Positions 40,671 through 62,930 are shown, counted from the stretch's first letter. The stretch is 64,000 nucleotides of DNA from an uncultured Actinomycetes bacterium (GCA_963778545.1 CAVZUW010000007.1:8942-72941), one strand, 5' to 3'. Translations and numbers: made by a program. Notes: generated from the letters alone by a model not told the origin.

Positions 40671-41264
40671 ATGACCGGGTACGTCAAGTCCCTTTGGGTC
40701 TCCATCCAGGGGGATCCGGTATTTATGCAACGGGTGAACGGGTGGCTCACGATCTTCTGGATCGCGATGATTCCGATCTCGATCGCAACGGGATGGATCA
40801 ACAGCGTCGCGTACGTGGCTTCGCTCTCGCTGTGGGCTCTCGTGTCAGGTCACTGGTCGGCCTGGCAGGCTGCCCGGGTGGAGGTCGCCCAGAAGAAGCA
40901 AGAGGAGCGGAGGGCGGCCGAGGACATGGCTGGCGAGATCGTGGAGCGGGTCGTGGAAGAGACCACCGTGGGTGGAGAAGCAGGGGTAGGCGGGGAGCAT
41001 CACGACTGCCAGCCGCCGAACGTGCAGTTTGCGAAGGACGAACTCCCGAAGCCGTGGAGGTGTCCGGACGGTCTGGGGAGATATCTGAGAGGCCGGAGGG
41101 TGACACCCGAGGGCTGGGCTGAGTGGATTCGGCTTGGCGAGCGAGGTGACGTAGCGAGCGCCGAACGCCCTCGGACCGTCGGCGTCCTCCGACCGGCTGT
41201 GCCTCTACGCGGGCAGGGATGGCGAAGGGATGCTTGTGCCAGGCCCATCCTTGGTTCCGCCTAG
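40671..41264 (+). CDS. membrane protein (3' extent uncertain)
   Basis: Its start overlaps the upstream stop. The N-terminal 70 aa hold two TM helices (WLTIFWIAMIPISIATGWINSVAYVASLSLWALVSGHW). The C-terminal half is low-complexity and runs into repeat R1a. Confidence 0.4.
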   Translation: MTGYVKSLWVSIQGDPVFMQRVNGWLTIFWIAMIPISIATGWINSVAYVASLSLWALVSGHWSAWQAARVEVAQKKQEERRAAEDMAGEIVERVVEETTVGGEAGVGGEHHDCQPPNVQFAKDELPKPWRCPDGLGRYLRGRRVTPEGWAEWIRLGERGDVASAERPRTVGVLRPAVPLRGQGWRRDACARPILGSA

Positions 41265-41364
41265 GACCGGGTACATGAAGTACGGCTGGTCCCGACGTCC
41301 GTCCACTCGGTTGGTCGGACCCAGCTAGGGAGCCCCGTGGCGGCACGCCGTTGCGGGGCTCCCT
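41246..41364 (+). repeat. R1a: ~120-nt structured intergenic repeat ending in a long GC hairpin
   Basis: catccttggttccgcctaggaccgggtacatgaagtacggctggtcccgacgtccgtccactcggttggtcggacccagctagggagccccgtggcggcacgccgttgcggggctccc. Hairpin gggagccccg...cggggctccc. The second copy is at 43430..43548. Confidence 0.85.
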
Positions 41365-43409: not shown

Positions 43410-43429
43410 GGACGAATTCCCGCGCCGCA

Positions 43430-43548
43430 CATCCTTGGTTCCGCCTGGAACGGGTACACAGAAGTACGGCTGGTCCCGATGCCCGTCCACTCGGTTGGTC
43501 GGAGCCAGCCAGGAGCCTCGTGGCGGCACGCCGTGGCGGGGCTCCCCT
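43430..43548 (+). repeat. R1b: second copy of the ~120-nt structured repeat
   Basis: catccttggttccgcctggaacgggtacacagaagtacggctggtcccgatgcccgtccactcggttggtcggagccagccaggagcctcgtggcggcacgccgtggcggggctcccc. It has the same orientation as R1a and differs mostly by point substitutions. Confidence 0.85.
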
Positions 43549-43929: not shown

Positions 43930-43993
43930 ATGGCTGGGCCATGCGGAGTCCGCGCCGCACGGCGAGCCGGTGGTGTGAACGTGCGCCGTTGCG

Positions 43994-44066
43994 TAGTCCC
44001 AACGGGGTTCGAACCCGTGTCTCCACCTTGAGAGGGTGGTGTCCTAGGCCACTAGACGATGGGACC
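43994..44066 (-). tRNA. tRNA-Glu (anticodon CUC)
   Basis: Minus strand: GGTCCCA TC GTCT AGTGGCCTA GGAC A CCACC CTCTCAA GGTGG AGAC ACGGG TTCGAAC CCCGT TGGGACT A. The cloverleaf folds by hand. G1 pairs with U72 as a wobble. Confidence 0.8.
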
Positions 44067-44234: not shown

Positions 44235-45662
44235 GTGCGCCCCCGCCCGCGACGCCGCTGGTTCCTCGCTCGCCCGGCCATGCTCACGATCGCGATCGCC
44301 GCGGTCGTGGCCGGGATCGGTGTCGCTCCGCCCGAGCGGACCCCATCGCCCGCACCGGCGGCCGCGGCGGCGGCCGGCATCGAGACGATCGATCACATCA
44401 TCATCGTCGTGCAGGAGAACCGCTCGTTCGACCACTACTTCGGGACGTATCCGGGCGCCGACGGCATCCCGAGGACCGACGGCAGGTGGGACGTCTGTCT
44501 CCCGGATCCCGTCCTCGAGCGATGCGCGCGCCCGTATCACTCGACGACGTACTTCGACGCGGGGGGCGCCCACAATCACTCCGCATCGGTGCGCGACGTT
44601 AACAGGGGTGAGATGGACGGCTTCGTCGAGACCGTGCGCCGGAGCGGCAACACGTGCAAGCGTCATCCGAACATCCGCCCGTGTCGAAAGACCAAGCGCG
44701 GTCCGGCGCGCCAACCCGACGTCATGGGGTTCCACACCCGCGCCGAGATCCCGAACTACTGGGCCTATGCGGATCAATTCGTCCTGCAGGACCGGATGTT
44801 CGCGCCGAGCGACTCGTGGACGCTGCCCGCGCACCTGTTCCTGACCTCCGCCTGGTCGGCGGATTGTTCGGATCTCCATGACCCGATGAGCTGTACGTCG
44901 GACCTGAACGACCCCGGCGACGGATGGAGGGCCGACAGCGGCGACCCCGCCCCGTACGCATGGACCGACATCACGTACCTGCTCCACGAGCACGGTGTGT
45001 CCTGGGCCTACTACGTGGGTGAGAAGACCTGCATCCGCCTCCCGTGCCCGACGGGGGAGGGCCGCCACACCACGTCCAATCAGCTCCCGATCGCGGGGTT
45101 CCGCACCGTGGAGCAGAACCATCAGCTCGGCAACATCCGGCCCCACGCCGACTACTTCGAGGCCGCGGCGGCGGGGACGCTCCCGTCGGTGTCCTGGATC
45201 ATGCCGTTCATCGGCGCGAGCGAGCATCCGCCGGGCGACATCCGGCCGGGCCAGGCCTGGGTGACCAAGGTCGTCAACGCCCTGATGCGGAGCCCGGAGT
45301 GGGAGTCGAGCGTGCTCTACCTGACGTGGGACGACTGGGGCGGCTTCTACGACCATGTCCATCCGCCCGGCGTCGACCAGAACGGGTTCGGGATCCGCGT
45401 CCCCGGGATCGCGATCAGCCCGTGGGTCAGCCCCGGGATGATCGATCACCAGACCCTGTCCTTCGACGCCTACCTGCGCTTCATCGAGGATCGTTTCCTG
45501 GGCGGGGAGCGCCTGGACCCGGCGACCCTCAGCCGGCCCGACTCGCGTCCGACCGTTCGAGAGACCGTGCCGATCCTCGGCGATCTGGCGACCGAGTTCG
45601 ACTTCACCCAGACGCCGATCCCGCCGCTGATCCTGGACCCGAAGCGAGCCGAAGCCGCCGGG
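44235..45662 (+). CDS. secreted phosphoesterase-family protein (phospholipase C / AcpA acid-phosphatase family), paralogue 1; 3' end uncertain
   Basis: GTG 44235 ([27 protein letters not shown]). Body: [26 protein letters not shown]...TLPAHLFL...SWIMP...[13 protein letters not shown]...[13 protein letters not shown]...[12 protein letters not shown]. The track ORF continues to 46394 only because there is no in-frame stop. Confidence 0.8.
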
Positions 45663-47239: not shown

Positions 47240-48700
47240 ATGCGTCCGAGCCCTCCCCGCCCAGCCCCGATCCTGATCACGTTCGCGCTGGCCGCGATGC
47301 TCGCGGCCGCGTGCACCTCGGCCTCCGGTCAGACCGGCCCGACGCCGAATGACACCGCCGGGCCCTCCGGATCGCCCTCGCCGGGCCCCAACCTGACGAA
47401 GCTCGAGCAGGCCAAGGAACACCTCAAGCACCTCGTGTTCATCGTCCAGGAGAACCGCTCGTTCGATCACTACTTCGGGACGTTCCCCGGCGCCGAAGGT
47501 ATCCCGATGCGCAACGGCAAGCCGACGGTGTGCGTGCCCGACCCGATCGCCGGACGATGCGTCCGGCCGTATCACACCACCGAGCAGCTGCAGGAAGGGG
47601 GTCCGCACGGCCAGCGTCATTCGGAGCTCGACGTCGACGGCGGCAAGATGGACGGGTTCGTCCGGACGGTGATCGACAGCCCCCTGTACTGCGCGGATCA
47701 CCGATCGGATCCGAAGTGCGACGGGTACCTCGGGCCGCAGGGTCAGCCGGACGTCATGAGCTACCACACGGCCAAGGAGATCCCGAACTACTGGCGGTAC
47801 GCCAAGGAGTTCGTCCTGCAGGACCACATGTTCGCGCCCGCCGATTCGTGGACGTTGCCGGCGCACCTGTTCCTGGTGTCGGCGTGGGCAGCCCATTGCG
47901 CGAACCCTCGGGACCCGATGTCCTGCTCGTCGAACCTCTACCTGAACGATGAGTTCCTGACGATGCGCGCGCACGAGGACGTCCCGCTCTGGGCGTGGAC
48001 GGACATCACGTATCTGCTGCACGAGCAGGGCGTCTCGTGGGGGTACTACGTCGGCGACGACACGTGCTTCTTCGACCCGTGCCCCGGTCACGGCCGCGAG
48101 AACACGGTCTCCCAGCAGAATCCGCTCCCGTGGTTCACGACGATCCGCGAGACGGGCCAGATGGACCGGATCCAGACGCACACCCAGTTCTACCGGCAGG
48201 CCGCGAACGGGAACCTGCCGTCGGTCTCGTGGGTCATGCCGTACAACGGGGTGGGGGAGCATCCCGCCTCGGGCGCGCCGATCTGGAAGGGTCAGCGCCA
48301 CGTCACCAACGTCGTGAACGCGCTGATGCAGGGTCCCGACTGGGACCAGACCGCGATCTTCCTGACATGGGACGACTGGGGCGGCTTCTACGATCACGTC
48401 GAGCCCCCGAGGGTCGACCTGAACGGATACGGGATCCGCGTCCCGGGACTGGTGATCAGCCCCTGGGCTCGTGCGGGCCTGATCGACTCGCAGACGCTGT
48501 CGTTCGACGCGTACCTCAAGCTGATCGAGGATCTGTTCCTGCAGAAGGAGCGGCTCAACCCGGCGACGATGAGCCGCCCGGACTCGCGACCCACGGTCCG
48601 CGAGAAGGTCGCGATCCTCGGCAACCTGCTGAAGGACTTCGACTTCACCCAGGATCCGATCCCGCCCCTGATCCTGGATCCGAATCCCAGCGGGACGTGA
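47240..48700 (+). CDS. secreted phosphoesterase-family protein (PLC/AcpA family), paralogue 2
   Basis: 486 aa. Lipoprotein-like signal (LAAMLAAAC). [26 protein letters not shown]... is collinear with paralogue 1 through ...[16 protein letters not shown]. Confidence 0.85.
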
Positions 48701-48765
48701 CGCTCTCACTCGGACGGATCGAACGCCGGCGCTTCTAGCTGTTCCCTGGTAGCGATCCGCGGTAG

Positions 48766-48836
48766 CTGGCCCGCCTGGATTCGAACCAGGACTAACTGAT
48801 CCAGAGTCAGCCGGGCTACCGTTACCCCACGGGCCA
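48766..48836 (-). tRNA. tRNA-Gln (anticodon CUG)
   Basis: Minus strand: TGGCCCG TG GGGT AACGGTA GCCC G GCTGA CTCTGGA TCAGT TAGT CCTGG TTCGAAT CCAGG CGGGCCA G. U1-A72 is typical of bacterial tRNA-Gln. Confidence 0.8.
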
Positions 48837-48847
48837 TGGTGTGACCT

Positions 48848-48867
48848 GCGGATATGTTACTATCCGC
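48848..48867 (+). promoter_or_regulatory. perfect inverted repeat GCGGATA-N6-TATCCGC between tRNA-Gln and the integrase start
   Basis: gcggatatgttactatccgc, flanked by CCATGG on both sides (48834-48839 and 48867-48872). Confidence 0.3.
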
Positions 48868-48909
48868 CATGGCACAGCGCTCGAACTCTCGATAACAGAG
48901 CGGAGCACC

Positions 48910-49839
48910 ATGGGATCGGTCACGGCGGCAAGGGTAGCAGCGCCCGCGATGCTCGACGTCATCCCCTCCTTCGAACGGCACCTCCGTGCCGAGAACAAGA
49001 GCCCGCGCACGATCCAGTCCTACACCGAGGCTGTCCGCAGGCTGCACGACTTCTGTTCGGCGAACGGGATGCCGCTTGAGGTGAAGTCCATCACCTCGGA
49101 GCACATCGAGTCCTTCCTCGCCGACCAGCTGGCACGGCTGCGACCCGCTAGCGCCCGGGCACGATTCGCCTCGTTGCGTCAGTTCTTCGCATGGCTCGCC
49201 AGCCGAGACGAGCGCGAGATCGAGCGCTCACCGATGGAGTCTTTGAAACCACCGAAGGTGCCACCTGTCCCTGTCCCGGTCCTGTCGCTCGAGCACCTGA
49301 AGGCGTTACTCCGGACGGTGGAACGCGAGGGTGGGTTCTACGGCCGTCGTGACGCCGCGATCACCCGAGCCTTCATCGACACCGGCTGCCGGTTGAGCGA
49401 GCTCTCCGGTCTCCGCGTCGGCGACGTCGACCTGGACCTGGGGACCATGACGTTCGTCGGTAAAGGTGGGGGCGAACGGCGGAACCCGATCGGGACCAAG
49501 ACGATCCGCTCGGTCGATAGGTACTTGAGGATCCGCGCGGCCCACCGCGACGCCGACTCCGAAGCCTTGTGGCTCGGGAGGTCGGGGCCGATGACGTCCT
49601 ACGGAATCGCCGAAGCCGTCAAGCGGCGCGGCCGAGAGGCTGGCATCGGGGATATCCACGTCCATCAGCTCCGTCACTCCGCCGCTCACTATCTGCGCCT
49701 GGCCGGCGCCGACGACGACGCCGTGCTCCGGCTGATGGGTTGGAAGGATCGGTCGATGCTGCACCGCTACGGCGCGTCCGCTGCCGACGAACGTGCCCGC
49801 GAGGTTCACAAGCGGCTGAGTCCGGGGGACCGGCTGTGA
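48910..49839 (+). CDS. tyrosine recombinase / phage-type integrase (XerC/XerD-like)
   Basis: ATG 48910. N-terminal SAM-like domain (FERHLRAENKSPRTIQSYTEAVRRL). Catalytic region: TGCRLSELSGLRVGDVDL...HQLRHSAAHYL...LMGWKDRSMLHRY. Confidence 0.9.
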   Translation: MGSVTAARVAAPAMLDVIPSFERHLRAENKSPRTIQSYTEAVRRLHDFCSANGMPLEVKSITSEHIESFLADQLARLRPASARARFASLRQFFAWLASRDEREIERSPMESLKPPKVPPVPVPVLSLEHLKALLRTVEREGGFYGRRDAAITRAFIDTGCRLSELSGLRVGDVDLDLGTMTFVGKGGGERRNPIGTKTIRSVDRYLRIRAAHRDADSEALWLGRSGPMTSYGIAEAVKRRGREAGIGDIHVHQLRHSAAHYLRLAGADDDAVLRLMGWKDRSMLHRYGASAADERAREVHKRLSPGDRL

Positions 49840-50129
49840 GCAACCGGCTCGTGCTCCTTTGCGGGATCTCGAAGGGGAACAGCCGTCCGTGCCGGCGGAA
49901 GCTCACGACTGTCGGCTACAGGGACGGCAGGATCTTCTCGGCCGAGCCTTTCGTCGGTCCGTTGGTAGGACCTGTGGTCGAAGAGAACGGGACTAGCTGG
50001 TGGGGCGGTGTCTGCCAGAAGCATCGGTGCTCGGTCTTCGTGCGCCATGTTGAAGTCGTTGCGGCGTTCGAGGCGGGTCAGATTGGGCTCGAGGCATCGA
50101 AACGCGTGCCGATCTTCCGCAGCGCTTGA
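49836..50129 (+). CDS. hypothetical protein, translationally coupled to the integrase
   Basis: GTG 49836 overlaps the integrase TGA (GTGA). The plus frame shows stronger third-position G/C bias than the competing minus ORF 49806..50162. Confidence 0.3.
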   Translation: MSNRLVLLCGISKGNSRPCRRKLTTVGYRDGRIFSAEPFVGPLVGPVVEENGTSWWGGVCQKHRCSVFVRHVEVVAAFEAGQIGLEASKRVPIFRSA

Positions 50130-50241
50130 CATCGCCGAAGCGCCGCGTAGATAGTGCTGCATCTAACCGCTGACTGACCCACGGGCTTACGTCCGGAACC
50201 GAGCGGCCTCGGGTACCCGCGATTCACCTGGGAGGTGAGTC

Positions 50242-50493
50242 GTGACACCCGAGGAGATGTCCCTCCGAGGCAGGATCGGCGCTCACGCCGTCCACGCGAA
50301 GTACGACGGCCGCGAGATCACCGCGAACGCACGCGCGACCTGGCTCGCCAGCTTCGTCAAGAAGGTCGACCAGAAGACACCCGGGCTCCCTGACCCCGAA
50401 CGGTTGCGTCGCGCCGAGCATCTGCTGAGGGCGCACATGGGCCGGTTGGCCCTGAAGAGCGCGAAGGCTCGCCGGAAGGCGGCGCCGCCATGA
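50242..50493 (+). CDS. hypothetical protein
   Basis: 83 aa. GTG follows GGGAGGTG. Its stop overlaps the next start. Confidence 0.45.
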   Translation: MTPEEMSLRGRIGAHAVHAKYDGREITANARATWLASFVKKVDQKTPGLPDPERLRRAEHLLRAHMGRLALKSAKARRKAAPP

Positions 50494-50963
50494 AACCCTT
50501 CGAAGAAGAAGGGGGGCGTTGGCGAAGCCCGTCCGCCGAGGGTCGCGAATTGAGCGCCGAGCTTTCACCAGAAGCCCCCGCGGCCGTACTCGATCGCGTT
50601 CGCGAGTACCGAAGGGCTGCCCGCAAAATCGTCGGGGCCGACTGGGTCGACGTGGCGCGGCGATGCGCTGGTCTGCTCGAGCTGGCGGACGCGGTGCGGT
50701 CGGAGCCTGATCTCATCGTCCGTCATTGGGCTGAGGGCGCGATCTGGGAGGAGTCGAAGGCCTTTCTCGGGATGGCTGATGAGGAACAGCCGCTCCCGCC
50801 CGAGTCGTACGAACACCGGCAGCGGCGTCTACGGCTGATGGGTGAGGACCGGTGTGGCCGATGCCATTCGGTGATCGCATCGGAAGCCGAGCTCGCGAGG
50901 TGGGCCAGGCTCCGCCGAGACGCAGCCGATCGACGCCGCGTGTGCGAGGAGGCCATCAAGTGA
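50490..50963 (+). CDS. hypothetical protein (CxxC near the C-terminus)
   Basis: 157 aa, overlapping its neighbours on both sides (operon-like). Confidence 0.45.
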   Translation: MKPFEEEGGRWRSPSAEGRELSAELSPEAPAAVLDRVREYRRAARKIVGADWVDVARRCAGLLELADAVRSEPDLIVRHWAEGAIWEESKAFLGMADEEQPLPPESYEHRQRRLRLMGEDRCGRCHSVIASEAELARWARLRRDAADRRRVCEEAIK

Positions 50964-52291
50964 GCGCCGAGCCGATGGCCGTCGCTGAACGGTTCGCCGG
51001 CCTGGGGCGCGTGCTCGACGACGTCTGCAGATTCGTGCGTCGGTACGTGATCCTGAGCGACGACGCAGCCACGATCGTGACGGTCTGGGTGGCGCATGTG
51101 TTTGCATTCAGAGCGTTCGAGTTCACGCCGTACCTCGTGGTCACTTCTGCCACGAAGCGATCGGGGAAGAGTCGCCTCCTCGAAGTGCTCGAGGTCGTCC
51201 TCGAGCCGAAGCGCTCCGTATCGACGGCAAACATCTCCGCCGCGAGCCTGTTCCGGCTGATTGATGCGAACCCTGGGGTTGCCGTGCTCTTCGACGAGAT
51301 CGACCGGATCCCGAAGGACAAGGCCGAGGATCTCTGGGGCCTGATCAACTCAGGCTGGCGCCTCGGCGGGAAAGCTCACCGGCAGTCCGGCGTGAAGATG
51401 GAGACGCTCACAGCGTTCTCCACGTTCTCGCCGAAGCTTCTGTGCGGCATCGGACGACCCGTGCCAGATACCGTGGACGATCGCGGACTCAAGATCCGGA
51501 TGGAGCGACGGCTTCCCTCCGAAAGCGTCGAACGCCTCCGCCTGCGGAGGGCTGCTGAGGAGGTAGCTCCGATCCGCGAGGCGCTGGCCACGTGGGCTGG
51601 CGATGGAACGATTGAACGGCTCTCCCACGCAGAGCCAACCTTCCCCGCCTCGATGACCAACGACCGGCTTATGGACGTGGCCGAGCCGCTGTTCGCGATC
51701 GCCGACGAAGCTGGCGGGGAGTGGCCCAGCCGCGTTCGGCGTGCCGTGTTCGACCTCGAGGAGGCGGCCGGGCACGTGGCTGAGGAGGAGCTCGGCGTTC
51801 TCGCCCTGCGACACGTCCTCGATGCATTCAGGACCAAGCGGGTCACCAAGCTGTTCACCGATGACCTACTCGCTTACATGGTGACATTGGACGACGGACC
51901 ATGGGCCGAGTGGTGGGGAGACAGGGTCGCCTCCGGTCAGACAGTTGGGCCGGCCCGACGGCTCCGCAAGCTGCTCGATCGGTTCGAAAAGGTCGAGCCG
52001 ACCCAGGTGCGCCTCGGCGAGGTGACGAGGAAGGGCTACCACCTCGAGCCGGTCCAGGCTGCGGGCTCGCGGTACCTATCCGAAACGTCCGAAACTAGCG
52101 AAACGCCCCTGGCCAGGCCTGTTTCGGATGTTTCCCCTGTTTCGGATACCCAAGGTGAGCGAGCACGAGAGCCAGGCTGGGTTCGCTTGCAGCGCGAGGC
52201 CGGCGAGGACCCCGAGCAGGACGAGGCAGCAGCCCTCGCTCGCCTGAAGACCGAGCTCGGCGCGACGGAGATCTCGAGGTCCCCGGCATGA
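50960..52291 (+). CDS. DUF3631-family protein (mobile-element replication/partition-associated)
   Basis: GTG 50960 overlaps the upstream stop (GTGA): ...LDDVCRFVRRYVILSDDAATIVTVWVAHVFAFRAFEFTPYLVVTSATKRSGKSRLLEVLE...VLFDEIDRI... is as I recall for DUF3631. Confidence 0.6.
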   Translation: MSAEPMAVAERFAGLGRVLDDVCRFVRRYVILSDDAATIVTVWVAHVFAFRAFEFTPYLVVTSATKRSGKSRLLEVLEVVLEPKRSVSTANISAASLFRLIDANPGVAVLFDEIDRIPKDKAEDLWGLINSGWRLGGKAHRQSGVKMETLTAFSTFSPKLLCGIGRPVPDTVDDRGLKIRMERRLPSESVERLRLRRAAEEVAPIREALATWAGDGTIERLSHAEPTFPASMTNDRLMDVAEPLFAIADEAGGEWPSRVRRAVFDLEEAAGHVAEEELGVLALRHVLDAFRTKRVTKLFTDDLLAYMVTLDDGPWAEWWGDRVASGQTVGPARRLRKLLDRFEKVEPTQVRLGEVTRKGYHLEPVQAAGSRYLSETSETSETPLARPVSDVSPVSDTQGERAREPGWVRLQREAGEDPEQDEAAALARLKTELGATEISRSPA

Positions 52292-52464
52292 CCCCTTCCG
52301 TCGCGTTCAACGCTTCGGTCGCGCCCGTCGAGAGGAGTGCGGCGGGGGTACCGGCGACCCGAGGGGGAGTAGGGGCTTCCCCCTCGACCGCGCGCGCCCG
52401 GAGACCCTCTGGGAAGTCCATCGGACTGTGTACGGGTCTGGATTCCTACGCTTGGGAGGTGGAT

Positions 52465-52938
52465 ATGGCAGGTAAGGGGCCGGCGCCGAAGCTGCCCGAT
52501 CAGCGACGTCGCCGCAACGCAACCCCCGGGTTCAAACGCTTGTCCCACGAAGGGCGCTTCGGGGATCCGCCTGCATCGCCGCTGACTACGCCCAGCGCCG
52601 CCGAACTCAACCAGTGGCGCGAGTTGTGGTCACTTCCCCAAGCGGTCGAGTGGGAGCGGATACGTTGCGAGCCCATGGTGGCCCTGTACGTCCGGGTCTT
52701 CGTGTCCGTTACCACCGAACTCGACCCGAAGATGTTGAACGAACTCCGCCAGCTGGACGCGAAGATCGGCCTGTCCCCGCGTTCCATGCTCGACCTCAGG
52801 TGGGAGATCGACGAAGCCATCGTCGAGACCGAGCCCGGAACGGAGTCGAACGGGCATCGCGTCTTCGTGCCGGACGGCCTGCATCACCCATCGGCGCCGA
52901 ATGGCGTACCGACGCCGCCTTACGTGCGTCCAAAATAG
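52465..52938 (+). CDS. P27-family phage terminase small-subunit-like protein
   Basis: ATG 52465 follows GGGAGGTGG: MAGKGPAPKLPDQRRRRN...AAELNQWRELWSLPQAVEWERIRCEPMVALYVR...LRQLDAKIGLSPRSMLDLRWEI. The layout matches P27 TerS as I remember it. Confidence 0.45.
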   Translation: MAGKGPAPKLPDQRRRRNATPGFKRLSHEGRFGDPPASPLTTPSAAELNQWRELWSLPQAVEWERIRCEPMVALYVRVFVSVTTELDPKMLNELRQLDAKIGLSPRSMLDLRWEIDEAIVETEPGTESNGHRVFVPDGLHHPSAPNGVPTPPYVRPK

Positions 52939-53012
52939 TTCCCTAGCGCGGCCGAACGCCGAGGACGAGATCTGTACGGCCAGCGGCTCCGTCTGGGCGG
53001 GATTCCGGTCGG

Positions 53013-53047
53013 CTAGACCGCCGGGCTCGCCGTGGCGCGCGGACTAG
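53013..53047 (+). repeat. R2 copy 1 (CTAG-associated ~38-nt intergenic repeat)
   Basis: ctagaccgccgggctcgccgtggcgcgcggactag. Confidence 0.6.
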
Positions 53048-53127
53048 CTGCAGGCAGCAGGCGCTAGCCGAGGACCGGAGTCGCTCCCGGCCTAGGCCGT
53101 GAAGGATGGACACCGAGCTTCAGCGGA

Positions 53128-53382
53128 TCAGCGTCCGCGCTCTTGCTCCTCCACCTTGCGGCGCTCTCGGGCCTCGCGTTGCATCTCCTCGACAATCTGG
53201 TCACCGGCGGCGAGCGTCGCCTCCGCTTCCAGGATCTGGGAGATGTACAACCGGATGCCCCGTCGGGCGACCCATGCCAGGGGGCGCTCCATGTCGTCTG
53301 CGATCGCCTGAAGTGCGCGTAGATCCCGAGGGCTGAGCTGGACCATCAGCCGCTCCGTAAGCCTTTCCTCCTGGTCTGACAT
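53128..53382 (-). CDS. ribbon-helix-helix (CopG/Arc-like) DNA-binding protein
   Basis: 84 aa: ERLMVQLSPRDLRALQAIADDMERPLAWVARRGIRLYI (beta-strand, helix, helix pattern), then a charged tail. Confidence 0.55.
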   Translation of the reverse strand: MSDQEERLTERLMVQLSPRDLRALQAIADDMERPLAWVARRGIRLYISQILEAEATLAAGDQIVEEMQREARERRKVEEQERGR

Positions 53383-53893: not shown

Positions 53894-54067
53894 ATGAGGA
53901 TCGAGCACGGACAGAAGGTGCGTCAGTACGACGTCGATCGTGTTTGCCGTGTACTCGGTTGTGCCGTTCAACTCTCCCGATACAACCCGGAGGAGTACTG
54001 CGGGGTCCACGCGCAGCAGAGATTCGAGACGCTGCCGCGCAGGCGGGGCGCTCGCGGTAGGAACTAG
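53894..54067 (+). CDS. 57-aa Cys-rich small ORF
   Basis: Not in the track. ATG 53894 follows GAGGAG: MRIEHGQKVRQYDVDRVCRVLGCAVQLSRYNPEEYCGVHAQQRFETLPRRRGARGRN. It shares a CTAG stop with the convergent gene. Confidence 0.3.
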   Translation: MRIEHGQKVRQYDVDRVCRVLGCAVQLSRYNPEEYCGVHAQQRFETLPRRRGARGRN

Positions 54068-54304
54068 CGTTCGCGGTCGGCTTCCGCGCAACATCCCGAC
54101 GAGCACCGCTCGCAACACACGGTCCTCCTCGCAGTCGATCAGCAACTCGGCGAAGGTGCGGCTCTGCGGGTAGCTCCAGAACTCCTTGATTCGCTCGGCA
54201 CGCTCGAAATCGGGAAGCATCAGGACGTGGAGAAGCTCCGCGCCGGGAGCCAAGGACCGAACAGACGATTCGAGAGGCTTAGAGTTAAGGTCCTGCCGGG
54301 CCAT
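54064..54304 (-). CDS. ELLIDCEEDR-module protein, copy A (longest copy; 1-nt frame problem in the last ~8 codons)
   Basis: ATG 54304: MARQDLNSKPLESSVRSLAPGAELLHVLMLPDFERAERIKEFWSYPQSRTFAELLIDCEEDRVLRAVLVGMLR. A 1-nt shift then gives EADRER-stop, matching the tails of the other copies. Confidence 0.4.
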
Positions 54305-54374
54305 GTCACCGGTATGGAGCAAACTTGCGTACCACCTCGGACGACGTCCTGCTCGCCAAGTGTCCGGCCTCTTC

Positions 54375-54989
54375 ATGGATGCTGGACTGCGCCCCTATCG
54401 GCCGCTTCACGTGGAGTCAACTGAGAGCTGGTCGTCGGCCTACGGAGGAGGTGGGCGCGACTATTCCGGACCTGCTGAAGCTGCTCGGTACGGCATCCTC
54501 GCCGCCTACCTGAGGCTCGTTGAGGAGTCCCCCTCGATCCTCGATTTCGGTTGCGGAACAGGGCTCGTGTTGGAGCGCATCCAGGGGATTCCGTTTCGCG
54601 ACTACGTGGGGATCGACTCCTCACCCGTCGCGATCGAGCTGGCCCGGGAAAGGGTGCCCGGGGTGGGTACGTTCGTTGTGGGTGAGGACGTGCCGCCAAC
54701 CGCCGGTCCGTTCGATGTAATCATCTGCAACGAGGTCTTGTACTACCTGTCCGACCCTGGTGCCGTGTTGGACCGGTTCAGAACGGTCCTCCGCCCCGGT
54801 GGGAGCCTCCTGACGTCGATCTTGCGCCATCCCGGAGACCTGAGCCTCCATCGGATGATTGATGCTCGCTTCCAACGCGTGTACGGGGTCGAGGTCCGGA
54901 ATCTCATCAGGAGGGGTACGGGACGTTGGCCTCACACACGGTACCGGCGTCGCGTGGCTTGGCACCGGTTGCCAAGGAACTCTTCATAG
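54375..54989 (+). CDS. class I SAM-dependent methyltransferase
   Basis: ATG 54375: ...SILDFGCGTGLVLERI (motif I)...YVGIDSSPVAIELA...FDVIICNEVLYYL...LRPGGSLL. Confidence 0.7.
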   Translation: MDAGLRPYRPLHVESTESWSSAYGGGGRDYSGPAEAARYGILAAYLRLVEESPSILDFGCGTGLVLERIQGIPFRDYVGIDSSPVAIELARERVPGVGTFVVGEDVPPTAGPFDVIICNEVLYYLSDPGAVLDRFRTVLRPGGSLLTSILRHPGDLSLHRMIDARFQRVYGVEVRNLIRRGTGRWPHTRYRRRVAWHRLPRNSS

Positions 54990-55051
54990 CTCCGCTAGGC
55001 AGCACATCCCGCCTCGGATTGGTCTGCCCATCTCTCTGCACCGGTAGGTCG

Positions 55052-55156
55052 CTAGGAAGGACCCGAGCGGTCGCCCTCTCGCAGCATTCCGACCAGCACC
55101 GCCCTCAGCGTCCGGTCCTCCTCGCAGTCGATCAGCAGCTCGAAGGTCCGACGCAA
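55052..55156 (-). CDS. ELLIDCEEDR module, copy B (short ORF from TTG, or a read-through extension of the zinc-finger ORF)
   Basis: (L)RRTFELLIDCEEDRTLRAVLVGMLREGDRSGPS-stop. It is in the same frame as the upstream zinc-finger ORF, separated by a single TGA (55160-55162). Confidence 0.35.
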   Translation of the reverse strand: MRRTFELLIDCEEDRTLRAVLVGMLREGDRSGPS

Positions 55157-55159
55157 TGG

Positions 55160-55304
55160 TCACCCGGAGGATGAGGCAGGCTCCTCCTCAACCCCGTGAG
55201 CTTCATTGAGGTGCTTCACGAGGTCTTCTTGCAGGGCGAAGGACTGGTCACAGAAGTGGCACTTGCGGACCGGGTTCGCCCATCTCCATCTCGTGTTCGC
55301 TCAT
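55160..55304 (-). pseudogene. second C2H2 zinc-finger micro-protein (ATG and finger are in different frames)
   Basis: ATG 55304 gives MSEHEMEMGEPGPQ.. and then a stop. The adjacent frame reads ..VRKCHFCDQSFALQEDLVKHLNEAHGVEEEPASSSG-stop, with the same C-x2-C-x12-H-x4-H spacing as 41434..41583. Confidence 0.4.
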
Positions 55305-55463
55305 CCTCGGTCTCCTCCGTGTTCGCTCTTTCGCCGGAGTGCTGCCACGCAACGCCGCCCTCCCAACTCGTCTCCCTTGTTGGGTAGGCCTTACCCAGGC
55401 TCCAGAGAGGCACACCACCAGTGAGGTCGGCGGTCCCGTGCGGCGCTCGCTCGCGGATGAGTC

Positions 55464-55546
55464 CTAGGAAGGACCCGAGCGGTCGATCTCCCGCAGCATC
55501 CCGACGAGCACCGCTCTCAGCGTCCGATCCTCCTCGCAGTCAGGCG
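55464..55546 (-). pseudogene. ELLIDCEEDR module, copy C (5'-truncated, abutting R2 copy 2)
   Basis: ..DCEEDRTLRAVLVGMLREIDRSGPS-stop. There is no start codon. Upstream it runs straight into the R2 repeat. Confidence 0.45.
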
Positions 55547-55585
55547 CTAGACCGCCGGGTCGGCGTGCTGCGCGGGCTCCGGGTG
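55547..55585 (+). repeat. R2 copy 2
   Basis: ctagaccgccgggtcggcgtgctgcgcgggctccgggtg. Confidence 0.6.
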
Positions 55586-55632
55586 CGCTCGCGTTGCACC
55601 AGGAACGTCTGGACGATTCGGCCTATCAGCCG

Positions 55633-56001
55633 CTACTCGACGATTGTCGCCTCGCCCGTCATCTGCGGATGGATGGTGCACACGAATTCGTACGTACCCG
55701 GCTCCACCGCACCAGAGATCGGCTCGGGACCGTTGAAGATCTCACCGGGGGCGATGGGGATGTTGATCTGGGTGCCGACCATCGTGAACGTGTGGCCGAC
55801 ATCGTCCTCATTCACGACCGAGATGCCTTGGGAAGCGGTCGCCTTGAAGCAAGCCGGGTAGAAGGCGAGTCTCGCGATTGTGATCGTGAAGCCTGGCTCC
55901 TCGCTGGTCAGATTGGCGCAATCCTCCGATGATCCGCCGTCATCCCCGCACGCGGGAAGCAGAGCCGCAACCGCCATGAGCACCACCAGAGCCTTCCGCA
56001 T
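55633..56001 (-). CDS. cupredoxin (type-1 blue-copper, plastocyanin/amicyanin-like) lipoprotein
   Basis: 122 aa. Lipobox ALLPAC. Copper ligands H (VGHTF) and C-x2-H-x2-M (FVCTIHPQM). Confidence 0.75.
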   Translation of the reverse strand: MRKALVVLMAVAALLPACGDDGGSSEDCANLTSEEPGFTITIARLAFYPACFKATASQGISVVNEDDVGHTFTMVGTQINIPIAPGEIFNGPEPISGAVEPGTYEFVCTIHPQMTGEATIVE

Positions 56002-56020
56002 ATCAACTCCAAGCCCTCGC

Positions 56021-56152
56021 CTAGGACGAACGTTCCGACTCCCGCAGCATGCCTACGAGCACCGCCCGCAGCGTCCGGTCCTGCTCGCAGTCGATCAGGA
56101 GTTCGGCGAAGGTGCGGCTCGCGGTCAGGTCGCGGAGGCGTGCCGTGAGCAA
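56021..56152 (-). CDS. ELLIDCEEDR module, copy D (43-aa ORF from TTG)
   Basis: (L)LTARLRDLTASRTFAELLIDCEQDRTLRAVLVGMLRESERSS-stop. An in-frame TGA lies 7 codons upstream of the TTG. Confidence 0.35.
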   Translation of the reverse strand: MLTARLRDLTASRTFAELLIDCEQDRTLRAVLVGMLRESERSS

Positions 56153-56221
56153 CTCCAGCCCAGCTCCTTGTCAGGGTTTCGCACGGGCTAGTCGGGGGCT
56201 TATGGTGGCGAGGGTGGTCGG

Positions 56222-56320
56222 ATGATCGCTGCCATCAGCATCGGGATCATCATCATCGTCGCCGTAATAGTCGCTGCGCTCGCGATCACGTACTTCATCC
56301 TGAAAGGATCGCCTCGGTAG
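56222..56320 (+). CDS. 32-aa hydrophobic micro-peptide
   Basis: MIAAISIGIIIIVAVIVAALAITYFILKGSPR. It has the same style as the peptide at 36274..36387. Confidence 0.3.
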   Translation: MIAAISIGIIIIVAVIVAALAITYFILKGSPR

Positions 56321-56678
56321 CCGCAAGCACTAGGGCCTCGCGTCGCTCCACGCGGATGCCTAGGGGTTGGCGGTGGTCGTGCCAGCGTCGCCAGGCGACT
56401 AGCTCATTCGCACCCTGAGGACACCGGCTCGAGTCAGTCCTTCGGCTAGCGCCAGGACTTCTCTGAGCGCCAGACCTTCGCCCACGCCGCGACCTCGCGC
56501 CGATCCCATAACCGACCCTGTCCCTCGCGTCCGACGAAGGGGGAAGCCAGACTCGTCGCTAGGAGTTCAGCACCACCGCCCGACCGCCGATCGAACGCCG
56601 GGGACGAAGCAAGCGCGAAGGGGTTGACTGTCCTCGGCGAAGCGGAGCACGGTGTGGCGGATCGGGTTCGAGACTGTT

Positions 56679-56706
56679 GGCTCGCCGTGCGGCGCGGGCT
56701 CCGGTG
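56679..56706 (+). repeat. R2 copy 3 (left end diverged)
   Basis: ggctcgccgtgcggcgcgggctccggtg. Confidence 0.6.
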
Positions 56707-56729
56707 AGACCAACGTCCAGCTAGTCGCC

Positions 56730-56882
56730 TCAGAGGATCCTTCCGACAGCCCCAAGCAGCCCGGCCATCATCGACCACCCGACGTAGGCGAGCAGGCATA
56801 TCCACACGAACGCCAGGATGAAGGCGGCCGGAGCGAGGAGGACCATTCCGGCCTCACCCAGGTTGTACGCAAGCTTGCTCAT
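56730..56882 (-). CDS. 50-aa two-helix membrane micro-protein
   Basis: MSKLAYNLGEAGMVLLAPAAFILAFVWICLLAYVGWSMMAGLLGAVGRIL. Confidence 0.35.
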   Translation of the reverse strand: MSKLAYNLGEAGMVLLAPAAFILAFVWICLLAYVGWSMMAGLLGAVGRIL

Positions 56883-56953
56883 CAGAAGAGACATACCCGC
56901 CGATCTTCGGCGGAAACGCGCTAGCCAAGCGTAACGACTGCAGTGGCAGTTGC

Positions 56954-57160
56954 TCAGCGCGAGAGCGCAAACAGCAGCACCAGGAATCCTGCACAGACCG
57001 CCAGTGCTCCGATCAGCGTGGCTGTTCGCTCTCGTTTGCGACTGACCTCGTTCTGCGGGCCTCGGAGGAACCCCAACGCCCCGGCAGCGATGAACCCTGC
57101 GCCTACCGCGCCGAAGGCTGCGCCGATCTGCGTGAGCTGCGTGGAAGTCGCGGCCAGCAC
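56954..57160 (-). CDS. 68-aa two-helix membrane protein
   Basis: Track ORF: ...IGAAFGAVGAGFIAAGALGFL...TATLIGALAVCAGFLVLLFAL. Confidence 0.4.
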   Translation of the reverse strand: MLAATSTQLTQIGAAFGAVGAGFIAAGALGFLRGPQNEVSRKRERTATLIGALAVCAGFLVLLFALSR

Positions 57161-57258
57161 GAATCGATCACCCCTAGGTCCACCACACTAGTGACGCGAC
57201 ATGACGGTTGGGAACCCAATTCCAGGCTCACCGTTGCGGCGCGAGATATAGGGGCCGA

Positions 57259-57426
57259 CTAGCTGAGGCCGATGGGCGAGACTTCAGGCACGTCCACGTC
57301 CCCGGTGAAAGCCGGTGAGGGTTCGGGGACGGGATGCTTCGGTGCTGGGTCGGTCATCGTCAGGAACCCCACCAGGAACGCTGCGACGATGATGACCGCG
57401 TAGACGATGCGTCTGCGCGGCGTCAT
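57259..57426 (-). CDS. 55-aa membrane-anchored micro-protein
   Basis: MTPRRRIVYAVIIVAAFLVGFLTMTDPAPKHPVPEPSPAFTGDVDVPEVSPIGLS. Confidence 0.35.
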   Translation of the reverse strand: MTPRRRIVYAVIIVAAFLVGFLTMTDPAPKHPVPEPSPAFTGDVDVPEVSPIGLS

Positions 57427-57487
57427 CGACGTGCAGGGGCATGGTCCACCCCGACATGGTCAAGCCTCAAGCCCGCCGTTACAAGTG

Positions 57488-57526
57488 CTAGACGCCGGCT
57501 CGCCGTGCGGCGCGGGGCTCCCGGTG
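57488..57526 (+). repeat. R2 copy 4
   Basis: ctagacgccggctcgccgtgcggcgcggggctcccggtg. Confidence 0.7.
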
Positions 57527-57557
57527 GCTCGTTGGACGGCCGTGATGATAGGACCTA

Positions 57558-58493
57558 GTGTTCGGGCATCCGATGTTGGGCCTGTCTCGGGCACTCATGG
57601 CGCTATCACTTGCTCTGATACTCCCCGCCACACACGCGCAGGCCACACCCACGTCGTGCCTCGGAAGGCCGGCGACAATCGTCGGCACGCCAGGAGATGA
57701 CGACCTGAGGGGGACCCTCGGACTCGACATCATCGTAGGACTCGGGGGCAACGACAGGATCCACGGGTCAGGAGGCCATGATTGGATCTGCGGGGGTAAG
57801 GGCACCGACCGGCTTAGTGGGGGCGGCGCGTGGGATCTCATCAGTGGGGGTGCTCTCGCCGATTACATCGCCGAGGAGGCAGGCTCCGACCAACTCTCCG
57901 GAGATTCGGGGGACGATGTCATTCATGGTGGTGCCGGTGGCGATTCGATTTTCGGCGGCAAAGGTGATGACGAGGTGATAGGGGGCCGCGGGTACGACTT
58001 CGTGAGTGGGGACGACGGGAATGACCGGCTAAGCGGCGGCGCCCGCGACGACGAGTTGGCGGGGGGCGCGGGAGACGATGCGGTCGATGGTGGTGATGGG
58101 AAGGGAGACACCCTCTCGTTCTACGATGACCCAGATCCCGTGGTCGTCGACCTCATCGCAGGGACGGCGACGGGCGAAGGCACAGACAGTCTGACGGCAA
58201 TCGAGGACGTGTTCGGTTCGAACGCTGATGACGTGATTTCCGGAGACAGCAGCGACAACTCCCTCAGCGGCGGCTTCTCCGGGAACGACAGGTTGGACGG
58301 GCGCGAGGGCGATGACGGGCTCAGCGGTCAGGCAGGTGATGACGATCTGGTCGGCGGTGAAGGAGACGACAATCTGTCCGGGTCGGAAGGGAACGACTCT
58401 CTTGATGGTGGAAACGGAGCAGACTTCCTGAACGGAGGCCCCGGCACGGACACGTGCGCGAACGGCGAGAACAACTCCGAATGTGAAGGCTGA
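57558..58493 (+). CDS. secreted calcium-binding RTX (hemolysin-type GGxGxD nonapeptide repeat) protein
   Basis: Signal LGLSRALMALSLALILPATHAQA. Many repeats follow: GGNDRIHGSGGHDWICGGKGTDRLSGGG..., GGAGGDSIFGGKGDDEVIGGRGYD..., GGEGDDNLSGSEGNDSLDGGNGADFLNGGPGTD. Confidence 0.8.
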   Translation: MFGHPMLGLSRALMALSLALILPATHAQATPTSCLGRPATIVGTPGDDDLRGTLGLDIIVGLGGNDRIHGSGGHDWICGGKGTDRLSGGGAWDLISGGALADYIAEEAGSDQLSGDSGDDVIHGGAGGDSIFGGKGDDEVIGGRGYDFVSGDDGNDRLSGGARDDELAGGAGDDAVDGGDGKGDTLSFYDDPDPVVVDLIAGTATGEGTDSLTAIEDVFGSNADDVISGDSSDNSLSGGFSGNDRLDGREGDDGLSGQAGDDDLVGGEGDDNLSGSEGNDSLDGGNGADFLNGGPGTDTCANGENNSECEG

Positions 58494-58502
58494 TCGAGCG
58501 TT

Positions 58503-58539
58503 CTACCGCCGGCTCGCCGTGCGGCGCGGGCTCCCGGTG
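58503..58539 (+). repeat. R2 copy 5
   Basis: ctaccgccggctcgccgtgcggcgcgggctcccggtg, followed by cacctag. Confidence 0.7.
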
Positions 58540-58631
58540 CACCTAGCGAAGCCTCGTCAGTGGCGAGCTGCACCTCGGGTGGCTGGCAGACGTGATGTCC
58601 AACCTTACCCCTGCTTCTCCACGTTGGTTCC

Positions 58632-59297
58632 CTAGAACAGATCCCGGACCAACCGGACGAGCAATGCCCCGATCGTCAGGATTAGTGCGACGCCGCCTGC
58701 ACCGATCACGATACCGATGGCAAGGACCACGACGTCGCCGAGGATGATCCCGAGGGCAACGACAACAGCACCCAACGCCGGGAACGTGTCAAGGCCCGAG
58801 AAGGGGGGTGCGAACGCTGCAGCGGCCGCCAGGATGATGACGATGAGTCCGAGCAGCCGTAGGAACCACCGTCGCTCGAACAGTTGAGCCCAGCGGGGTC
58901 GCGAGAATCGCTCGAACCATCGGATACGCCGCACCATGAATGGGATGGCCTTGCCGGTCGTGCTGTCACCGAGCTCGCGGTTCCGCCACTTCGCGGGGAG
59001 CCAGATCGTCCTTGCGCCGAGCACCATCTCCGCACCTAGCAGCGCGGTGATGGCCTCGAACACGTGGGTAATCCCGCCGGTGGGTAGGGGCAACGCAGGC
59101 AGGAACATCAAGAGCAGGATCGTGACGGCGAAGCTCCTTTCCCCGAACAGATCGCCCAAGCGGCCGAGGGTCTTGGGCGTGTCGGACCTGAGCCAGTGCT
59201 CAAGCTCGGCGCTGAAGGGCTGTTCGGCCATGACGAGATCGGGGTCTGCTGCGGCAGGGTGCACAGCGAGCAGGTGCCCAGACATCGGCATTGGCAA
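58632..59297 (-). CDS. ExoD-family (exopolysaccharide synthesis) membrane protein
   Basis: 221 aa: LGRLGDLFGERSFAVTILLLMFLPALPLPTGGITHVFEAITALLGAEMVLG...WLP.KW is as I recall for ExoD. Confidence 0.6.
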   Translation of the reverse strand: MPMPMSGHLLAVHPAAADPDLVMAEQPFSAELEHWLRSDTPKTLGRLGDLFGERSFAVTILLLMFLPALPLPTGGITHVFEAITALLGAEMVLGARTIWLPAKWRNRELGDSTTGKAIPFMVRRIRWFERFSRPRWAQLFERRWFLRLLGLIVIILAAAAAFAPPFSGLDTFPALGAVVVALGIILGDVVVLAIGIVIGAGGVALILTIGALLVRLVRDLF

Positions 59298-59364
59298 ACA
59301 CGAGGTCGACGGTCCAGCGTCAGCCCAGCTCAGACGACACTCGCCTCAGCGCTTGTCCTCGCCT

Positions 59365-59420
59365 CACGTCAGCATCCCGACCGGCACAGCAGGAGCGTCC
59401 GGTCATCCCCGCAGCCGATC
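59365..59420 (-). pseudogene. ELLIDCEEDR module, copy E (degenerate remnant)
   Basis: The minus strand atcggctgcggggatgaccggacgctcctgctgtgccggtcgggatgctgacgtg aligns with atcgactgcgaggaggaccggacgctgagggcggtgctggtcggaatgctgcgagag of copy B. Confidence 0.35.
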
Positions 59421-59646
59421 GCCGGCTCCCGTTCCCGACCGGCTCCCGGCTGCGCGTTGTCAAGACGACGAGGCCGCCATGCAGGACGGGGGTCGAATCG
59501 CCGGGCCTCAGCCCGTCCACGGCTCCCTTGCCGCTCTCGACGCCGTGGGTGGATATTGGGTGGGGCAGATCTTCAGGTTGAGCTCCGGCGAGGAACGAGG
59601 ACGCGATTTCCCCAGGGCTCAGCCTCTTGGAGGCAACCGCTCCTGC

Positions 59647-59665
59647 AACCGCCGGCTCGCGGTGG
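59647..59665 (+). repeat. R2 copy 6 (partial)
   Basis: aaccgccggctcgcggtgg. Confidence 0.35.
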
Positions 59666-62433: not shown

Positions 62434-62930
62434 CGCCCGCAAAGGCAACGAATCGAACGAAGGGGACGGCACAGAATGGCCATGGCCCCATCTCGAGCGT
62501 GATGGGTAAGGCCGGTGACGCTGCATCGGTGGTGGGGTCCGGTGCCAAGAAGACGGGATCCGGGGCAAGGAAGGTCGTCGGCGCCGTCGCCAAGAACCCC
62601 TTGCTGGCCGCCACCGGCGCGGCAGTGCTGGGCGCGGCGATCGGCGGGACCGCTCTCGCTCGCGAACGCAGGCAGAAGAACAAGAAGTCGTCGAGCAAGA
62701 GGGCTCCGGCGAAGAAGTCGTCGAGCAAGAAGACCTCGGCCCGAAAGAGCGGCGCGAGGAAGTCGCCCGCACGTTCGTCGGCCAAGAAGCCATCAACCAG
62801 GAAGACGTCAACGAAAACGAGCGCGAAGAAATCCCCGGCCCGCAAGCGGACTTCGTCGTCAAAGCGCAGCGGCACCAAGCGATCAACAGCGACGCGCAAA
62901 CGGACCGGCTCTCGCTCGAGCAGCTCTTAA
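62430..62930 (+). CDS. basic-tail (K/S/R-rich, histone-like) membrane-associated protein
   Basis: 166 aa. Its start overlaps the upstream stop. ...LLAATGAAVLGAAIGGTAL is followed by KKSSSKRAPAKKSSSKKTSARKSGARKSPARSSAKKPSTRKTSTKTSAKK... Confidence 0.55.
   Translation: MTPAKATNRTKGTAQNGHGPISSVMGKAGDAASVVGSGAKKTGSGARKVVGAVAKNPLLAATGAAVLGAAIGGTALARERRQKNKKSSSKRAPAKKSSSKKTSARKSGARKSPARSSAKKPSTRKTSTKTSAKKSPARKRTSSSKRSGTKRSTATRKRTGSRSSSS

Follow-up and report, generated by a model that had tools for sequence, protein, structure and literature searches.

Remnants of a multi-copy gene at the boundaries of accessory genes in an uncultured soil Actinomycetota, and their possible role as joints for cassette exchange

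In the ssrA islands of Dehalococcoides, tandem integrative elements have accreted at the 3' end of the transfer-messenger RNA gene. Arrays of 5'-truncated copies of one gene are found in the orphan toxin-immunity modules downstream of cdiA/rhs and in the silent pilS cassettes. The tycheposons of Prochlorococcus are tandem integrative elements located at the 3' end of tRNA genes (bioRxiv 10.1101/2020.12.28.424599). Clusters of attC sites lacking integrase are known as CALINs, and no complete integrons were found in the phylum Actinomycetota in a 2016 survey (Cury et al. 2016, PMC4889954). A repeated small coding module is described here from a host of that phylum, in a stretch of 64,000 nucleotides (nt) from an uncultured Actinomycetes bacterium (GCA_963778545.1 CAVZUW010000007.1:8942-72941), hereafter called the window. 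Its five copies were determined to be remnants of one multi-copy gene, coding for an acidic protein of ~82 amino acids (aa) of uncultured soil Actinomycetota. These remnants form co-oriented direct repeats at the boundaries of unrelated small accessory genes within a hypervariable region.

Based on a nucleotide profile built from full-length relatives of the 82-aa family, exactly five copies of the module were identified in the window, all on the minus strand; the next-best match had an E value of 0.008 and was noise. The five minus-strand copies reported in the initial annotation were recovered by strand reading, by a repeat search and by the profile:

54064..54260, minus strand: copy A, near-complete pseudogene of the 82-aa family, ~16 N-terminal codons missing, +1 frameshift before the tail; profile match at 54084-54260, minus strand (profile nt 49-223, E 1.4e-42)
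55052..55169, minus strand: copy B, 3' fragment with tail GDRSGPS*, 34-aa TTG-started open reading frame (ORF) at 55052-55156; profile match at 55069-55169, minus strand (profile nt 128-231, E 1.2e-18)
55464..55541, minus strand: copy C, 3' fragment with tail IDRSGPS*, immediately adjoining an R2 repeat; profile match at 55481-55541, minus strand (profile nt 171-231, E 2.4e-11)
56021..56123, minus strand: copy D, 3' fragment with tail SERSS*, the right-hand half of a family gene interrupted by the TM32 element; profile match at 56033-56123, minus strand (profile nt 140-230, E 1.7e-21)
59368..59420, minus strand: copy E, decayed 3' fragment that has lost 1 nt and carries several non-synonymous changes; profile match at 59368-59420, minus strand (profile nt 167-220, E 0.005)

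None of the five copies (0/5) is intact, each being truncated, frameshifted or decayed. The homology of copy A to the family begins at about codon 17, and a 1-nt insertion after ...MLR shifts the family tail (EADRER*) out of frame. Because of this frameshift the conserved TAG at 54064 is out of frame, and the 232-aa ORF over copy A is spurious. The initial annotation ascribed a long N-terminal region to this copy alone; the copy is not intact. In-frame TAG stops are located at 55052, 55464 and 56021 in copies B, C and D, respectively, and each of these three copies is cut off from the gene upstream by an in-frame stop. A TAG is located just upstream of the fragment in copy C. Copy B carries an in-frame 3-nt deletion (F-ELL). 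Other details of the first description stood as well: B and D are short ORFs started by TTG (34 and 43 aa), C abuts the R2 repeat directly, and E is degenerate. Copy E also matches copies in ~25 other loci with 80-85% identity (BLASTN). Neither C nor E has a start codon. Within the 18-codon core DCEEDRTLRAVLVGMLRE, any two of copies A to D are separated by 4-7 synonymous and 0-3 non-synonymous codon changes, in accordance with the mostly synonymous differences noted at the outset; the 5 differences between B and C are all in third positions.

A profile of the four window peptides matched at least 6,979 proteins among 5.8 billion, mostly of 40-90 aa and with an identity to the family consensus of typically 80-90%. 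Not one of them had a Pfam domain or a name beyond "hypothetical protein". The full-length form is ~82 aa long with the consensus MRPDELERRLRERLDALGPAPRAELLHVLMLPDFERADRIGEFWSYPQSRTFAELLIDCEEDRTLRAVLVGMLREAERSGPS and a calculated pI of ~5, and the motif of the initial annotation is its C-terminal third, that is, the end of a larger, though unnamed, protein. When 1.84 billion cluster representatives were searched exhaustively with a profile, 3,017 clusters at 50% identity were returned, a count which is inflated by ORFs running from the module into unrelated flanks. All are small proteins, with no multidomain relative among them, and distant homology was rejected. The earlier failure to recognise a named domain was confirmed, since no match to the family was found in Pfam (E <= 1), NCBIfam or PHROGs and no relative among the PDB sequences (best E = 0.77). 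AlphaFold2, run on a 48-sequence alignment, predicted a five-helix bundle (predicted local distance difference test score 89, predicted template modelling score 0.76). With this predicted fold, Foldseek gave nothing significant (best E 3.4 in PDB and 1.7 in BFVD). An origin as a phage or plasmid gene was discarded, no relative being present in IMG/VR viral contigs or PLSDB plasmids, and a literature search with the motif strings found no paper containing them.

A scan of GTDB (one genome per species) yielded 66 module loci, almost all from metagenome-assembled genomes (MAGs) of uncultured soil Actinomycetota. Many of these loci share one genome and many lie at contig ends. One MAG holds at least 34 module copies in its loci examined; a genome carries dozens of copies, and contig breaks are frequent at these places. 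The intact family gene has no conserved neighbour in the loci examined. Both the family and the behaviour of its arrays are widespread and look undescribed.

Twenty full-length copies were aligned together with 150-nt flanks. Conservation runs from start codon to stop codon and the flanks are unrelated; a repeat derived from a miniature inverted-repeat transposable element or insertion sequence was rejected on this ground. Mismatches to the consensus at codon positions 1/2/3 amount to 0.12/0.08/0.23-0.34 in full-length copies and 0.09/0.05/0.19 in 3' fragments. The Nei-Gojobori ratio of non-synonymous to synonymous substitution (dN/dS) was 0.23 (dS 0.69) for full-length copies and 0.20 for fragments, with a range of 0.15-0.27. 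To judge from these substitution patterns the family is under purifying selection, with a dN/dS of ~0.2, far from 1. Antisense coding was excluded because the variable positions are sense-strand wobble sites. Selection on a peptide, as proposed in the initial annotation, is thus upheld by dN/dS, by the third-position mismatches, by conservation limited to the ORF and by the AlphaFold2 fold. The coding signature of the fragments equals that of full-length copies, and so it may be inherited rather than maintained. Each fragment would descend from a different paralogue which was under purifying selection while intact, giving the synonymous differences, and there is no need to suppose that the short ORFs B and D are translated. 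The suggestion of a diversifying micro-protein family did not hold for the five copies, all of which are broken pieces of a larger gene with an inheritable signature.

An in-frame stop occurs within 8 codons after MLRE in 44/54 fragments and 29/35 full-length copies, compared with 6/38 and 15/39 in the other two frames. The 3' fragments thus end at the true end of the gene. An orphan array of polymorphic toxins was ruled out by the same early stops (44/54 fragments) and by the lack of Pfam domains in the extended ORFs. The proposal of a shared C-terminal module swapped between genes fell with the stops upstream of B, C and D and the extended ORFs without a Pfam domain; longer database ORFs show no Pfam domain in their extensions, so a C-terminal domain fused to other proteins was rejected. 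The 35-45-codon ORFs and the chimeric ORFs annotated across fragments are probably not genes.

The arrangement of copies was surveyed in the window and 71 related loci (designated L001 and so on), with the copies classed as F (full-length), C (3' fragment) or N (5' fragment of the family gene). The census comprised 56 full-length copies, 90 3' fragments and 26 5' fragments, almost always co-oriented within one locus. In other loci the copies are most often arranged as [F or N]-(spacer-C)n, F-870-C-607-C-797-C being one instance; the spacers range from 258 to 2,340 bp (median 739 bp). Along the module strand the window reads C-492-C-312-C-809-F, with copy E another 3.2 kb upstream. Over a 51-nt core, mean identity is 0.78 whether copies of one locus, of one genome or of different genomes are compared; local tandem duplication and concerted evolution were rejected, copies in one array being no more alike than copies across genomes. 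Fragment 5' ends vary widely, between profile nt 94 and 195, with most of them at 128-178. Fragments starting before nt 128 are rare, as are 5' fragments ending after nt 132 (their ends range over nt 88-160), and a minimal 3' core, from ~nt 178 on, is present in nearly all detected fragments.

The DNA on either side of the copies was compared using the 150 nt abutting each side of 141 non-redundant full-length or 3'-fragment copies. The upstream flank was shared by 8 pairs and the downstream flank by 13 pairs, but both flanks by 0. This one-sided sharing marks the copies as recombination joints, which connect cassettes that assort independently. The 5' breakpoint of the module agrees in upstream-sharing pairs (151/152, 166/161, 146-150) and varies in downstream-sharing pairs (full-length versus 135, 166 and 170). 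A pair with the same breakpoint but different downstream DNA requires exchange within the module, and this applies to all 8 upstream-sharing pairs. In five of the six informative ones, identity is held at the level of the flank up to nt 204 and drops in nt 205-232. In locus L040 versus copy C of the window the drop comes before profile nt 182, and in one pair with a common downstream flank the module differs throughout, against 95% identity of the flank. These positions are suggestive of a preferred exchange zone near the 3' end of the module.

Three further comparisons bear on the movement of cassettes. Positions 56124-55478 of the window (copy D, the cupredoxin gene, R2 and copy C) correspond to L040 10098-10760 with 90% identity; there the block comes after an uninterrupted family gene, and the DNA beyond it differs from the window. 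One 280-bp cassette was found in four contexts, behind copies of differing 5' extent. L069 has an intact family gene which, at the same locus in L032, is split by 6.1 kb of other cassettes, with removal of profile nt ~110-150. The splitting of copy D involves the following features:

56126..56369, minus strand: TM32 element, insert of ~240 bp interrupting the family gene at profile nt ~140
56222-56320, plus strand: TM32 mini-ORF, 32-aa hydrophobic transmembrane product, opposite strand to the module

In four or more different genomic contexts TM32 interrupts the module gene at one and the same position (89-91% identity); its left junction was found in L034 and both junctions in L072-L080. Neither terminal inverted repeats nor a target duplication were seen for it.

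The module copies are, in the reading that we consider the most probable and rather likely to be correct, gene remnants at the boundaries of accessory genes which serve as joints for cassette exchange. Recombination between two copies, whether full-length or fragment, would set a cassette beside a new neighbour and would make every joint a chimera, with the 5' breakpoint derived from the upstream cassette and the last ~30 nt, the tail and the DNA beyond from the downstream one. Most simply, the DNA between two direct copies would leave as a circle and insert again at any other copy; this route would keep orientation and give the order F-X-C. New joints may form by insertion of DNA into an intact copy, copy D being in that case the 3' half after the TM32 insertion. 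Either general homologous recombination or a site-specific recombinase could act as the enzyme. The "mobile mini-cassette" was the closest of the options offered by the initial annotation, to which is added that the copies mark the joints of independently assorting cassettes.

Several points weigh against this reading. The crossover is poorly resolved, and the five pairs with a late drop in identity represent only ~3 independent cassettes. Copies are ~80% identical over 55-100 nt only, which is inefficient for homologous recombination; such low identity leaves room for a dedicated recombinase, and none was found for module exchange. The order in the window, four fragments and then a near-complete copy, reverses the commonest one. 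Detection is biased, the fragments found being the well-preserved ones only, and frameshifts may be sequencing errors in the many loci taken from long-read MAGs. Finally, the non-synonymous load of the fragments is no higher than that of intact genes; this fits young scars, but some of the fragments may be translated.

The alternative that survives best is an integron-like site-specific system, for which the left border of the variable region is of importance:

48765..48836, minus strand: tRNA-Gln, conserved left border of the locus
48841..49839, plus strand: Xer-like tyrosine recombinase, below the cut-offs for XerC, XerD and IntI

The 3' half of the module would then correspond to attC and the full-length gene to attI, and a tyrosine recombinase, such as that at 48841-49839, would excise and insert units of spacer plus 3' fragment, crossing over close to the module's 3' end. 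The F-(X-C)n architecture does mirror attI-(ORF-attC)n. The chimeric joints with their cassette-specific 5' extent, the drop in identity after nt ~205 in five of the six informative pairs and the nearly universal 3' core would be expected as well, and 80% identity over ~55 nt is a poor substrate for RecA. The tRNA-Gln, recombinase and phosphoesterase genes to the left are syntenic with L010, L053 and L006/L068 (85-93% identity), and homology ends 3 nt past the stop codon of the recombinase, where the hypervariable region starts in four related genomes. L010, L053 and L068 share both flanks, yet the 6-8 kb enclosed by them, which includes module arrays, differs completely; the window shares with these three the tRNA-Gln/recombinase-side flank.

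We nevertheless regard such a system as unlikely. RNAalifold on 28 distinct 3' halves gave energies of -1.2 and 0.0 kcal/mol, with single-sequence z values of -0.3 and +0.4, so that no conserved fold, hairpin or dyad exists on either strand. An attC-like or other nucleic-acid structure was thereby ruled out for the module 3' half and likewise for R2, which has no conserved fold beyond a 4-bp mini-hairpin. A small palindrome, CCGGACGCTCCGG, is not retained in the window copies, and the GTTRRRY core is absent at the module boundary. A known structured RNA was rejected as well, since Rfam at its gathering threshold detected only two tRNAs in the window. The recombinase scored 50.7 bits against TIGR02249 (IntI), whose cut-off is 265. 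It adjoins the array at this locus and its orthologues, but no recombinase lies within 10 kb of the arrays in L001 and L069 (beside rpoD/dnaG in the latter). A general link between the module and this recombinase family was rejected, as only 3/68 metagenomic loci of recombinase homologues hold a module copy. Owing to the few shared loci, the score below cut-off and the recombinase-free arrays, exchange was not assigned to the Xer-like recombinase. The one crossover before nt 182 also speaks against such a system, as does the orientation of high-GC3 ORFs (rich in G+C at third codon positions) in 90 spacers, of which 59 are on the same strand as the module and 69 on the opposite strand, without orientation bias.

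Other roles for the repeat were considered and discarded. A leader peptide or promoter for the downstream gene is at odds with spacer genes lying equally on both strands, and no promoter or terminator sites were found at module copies. CTAG/TAG was rejected as a crossover motif: TAG is ~3-fold enriched upstream of fragments (24% vs 7.6%), largely at R2 junctions, and is not universal.

Functional micro-proteins, that is, ORFs of the B and D types translated as two-helix peptides which modulate or mimic the full-length protein and are directly selected, seem improbable. The scattered fragment 5' ends come with neither a conserved start codon nor a ribosome-binding site, the upstream in-frame sequence is arbitrary, and the fragments span only helices 4-5 of the predicted five-helix bundle; C and E, as said, have no start codon. 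B and D are open from TTG to a positionally conserved stop, and the low non-synonymous load of the fragments is in keeping with selection. A D-type ORF of 41-44 aa has been called in many metagenomes, a recurrence which is explained by one ancestral TM32 insertion that later spread. The leader of this ORF, LLTARLRDLT, is the end of the TM32 insert, and its 4 changes relative to L034 are all non-synonymous. Passive debris, namely ordinary pseudogene remnants of an abundant family of the flexible genome with no role in moving their neighbours, would account for the scattered breakpoints, the 5' fragments, the target nucleotides lost at the L032 insertion and the lack of an identified enzyme, but is hardly to be expected given the excess of 3' over 5' fragments (90 vs 26), the almost constant co-orientation, the 8 upstream-sharing pairs which keep their breakpoint and differ downstream through exchange within the module, and the rarity of fragment starts before nt 128 and of 5'-fragment ends after nt 132.

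Cassette exchange at the module copies could, if extended, amount to an integron-independent cassette platform in soil Actinomycetota, in which a protein gene would at the same time serve as recombination site. The intact gene would head the array, each mobile unit would end in a 3' piece of it, and exchange would be concentrated in the last ~30 nt, either catalysed by a recombinase or aided by the 82-aa protein. This more detailed scheme is offered tentatively and is doubtful as a whole.

The cassette genes between and beside the copies are small and of varied kinds; they are listed here with the cores of the second repeat, R2:

54186..54989, plus strand: S-adenosylmethionine (SAM)-dependent methyltransferase, cassette gene between B and A, opposite strand to the module
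55160..55304, minus strand: small C2H2-like zinc-finger ORF, cassette gene between C and B
55552..55580, minus strand: R2 core, fused to copy C
55633..56001, minus strand: cupredoxin-like lipoprotein, cassette gene between D and C
56674..56702, minus strand: R2 core, from the repeat search
56730..57426, minus strand: three small predicted membrane ORFs (54, 68 and 55 aa), between R2 copies
57492..57520, minus strand: R2 core, from the repeat search
57558..58493, plus strand: RTX calcium-binding repeat protein, cassette gene, opposite strand
58506..58534, minus strand: R2 core, from the repeat search
58632..59297, minus strand: ExoD-family membrane protein, cassette gene downstream of E
43945-43973, plus strand: R2 core, beside tRNA-Glu (43993-44066)

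R2 is a second dispersed repeat of ~60 nt, with the core GGAGCCCGCGCCGCACGGCGAGCCGGCGG followed by TCTAG or TCTGA. It has 73 matches in related loci, mostly co-oriented with the module, and is joined to the module in both orders, as R2 plus TAG plus 3' fragment and as module stop plus the 3' half of R2. An exact look-up showed the cupredoxin cassette protein not to be on record. The zinc-finger gene (...VRKCHFCDQSFALQEDLVKHLNEAHG...) has a frameshift after MSEHEMEMGEPG and is either a pseudogene or an assembly error. Upstream of copy E, ~135 nt at 59525-59660 match L040 11998-12136 and 4333-4432 with 76-78% identity, and may represent a third repeat family of the arrays.

A set of genes resembling satellites or phage-inducible chromosomal islands (PICIs) adjoins tRNA-Gln at 48841-53382. 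It includes, in addition to the recombinase:

50852-52291: DUF3631 protein, part of the satellite-like set
52288-52938: small-terminase-like protein, Pfam Terminase_7 just below cut-off, PHROG 226
53128-53382, minus strand: ribbon-helix-helix gene, recurring beside an array in L040 with 85% nucleotide identity

An island bounded by partial tRNA-Gln repeats was rejected, no partial copy of this tRNA being present elsewhere in the window. Two phosphoesterase-type paralogues, at 44389-45539 and 47424-48580, are ~74% identical and located beside tRNA-Glu and tRNA-Gln, respectively. Farther to the left, a long run of 15-nt tandem repeats lies within an ORF at 40120-40660 and codes for a pentapeptide rich in Lys/Arg/Ala/Gly/Thr, with weaker copies at 62739-62806. 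A segment of ~120 nt is duplicated at 41243-41362 and 43427-43546 (84% identity) and ends in a perfect GC-rich hairpin, GGGAGCCCCG...CGGGGCTCC, the left arm of which resembles the R2 core. The duplicated segment sits in a block of lower GC content at 36-44 kb (0.62-0.635 vs ~0.70 at 4-36 kb).

The family is huge and yet invisible to annotation, with thousands of "hypothetical" sequences and a confidently predicted fold which matches no solved structure. Should exchange really take place at the joints, the shuffling of small accessory genes in a major uncultured soil group not known to have integrons would be explained, and the joints would provide a simple sequence tag to locate the flexible genome in soil metagenomes. 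They would also bear on how cassette-type arrays arise without an integron.

Compared with the systems named at the beginning, the arrays share with the cdiA/rhs orphans and pilS cassettes that the homology kept by truncated copies allows recombination with a full-length copy. They differ in that the module piece stops within 8 codons, that unrelated genes rather than an in-frame variable domain come after it, and that its peptide is conserved and not diversified. In the tRNA islands and tycheposons, a full-length target is followed by co-oriented 3' fragments with unrelated cargo between; this is the commonest order of the module arrays in other loci, but in the window the near-complete copy comes last. 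The island in the window adjoins a tRNA and a tyrosine recombinase and contains a PICI-like set (recombinase, primase-associated protein, small terminase); the recombinase is also present at the orthologous loci, but not beside other arrays. In contrast to these elements, the repeated target is a multi-copy protein gene at dozens of loci per genome, the units are only 0.3-2 kb and carry no integrase, and the window has no partial tRNA-Gln copies. A fixed boundary of the repeat is likewise missing, as 5' ends fall at nt 94-195, 5'-fragment ends at nt 88-160, and identity switches vary.

The arrays also resemble integrons and CALINs. Co-oriented repeats 0.3-1.5 kb apart bound small genes, mostly of unknown function; each repeat is a chimera of its two neighbours; arrays often have no recombinase nearby; and a distinct "first" site heads many of them. 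In both, the repeats delimit independently assorting cassettes, as is seen here from the flanks shared upstream (8), downstream (13) or on both sides (0). The arrays depart from integrons and CALINs in having no IntI, in carrying cassette genes on either strand and in the irregular 5' extent of the repeat, which is the 3' half of a selected protein gene and not a folded attC hairpin. We accordingly place the module arrays among the repeat-delimited cassette arrays, the repeated unit being in this case the 3' half of a protein gene present in many copies.

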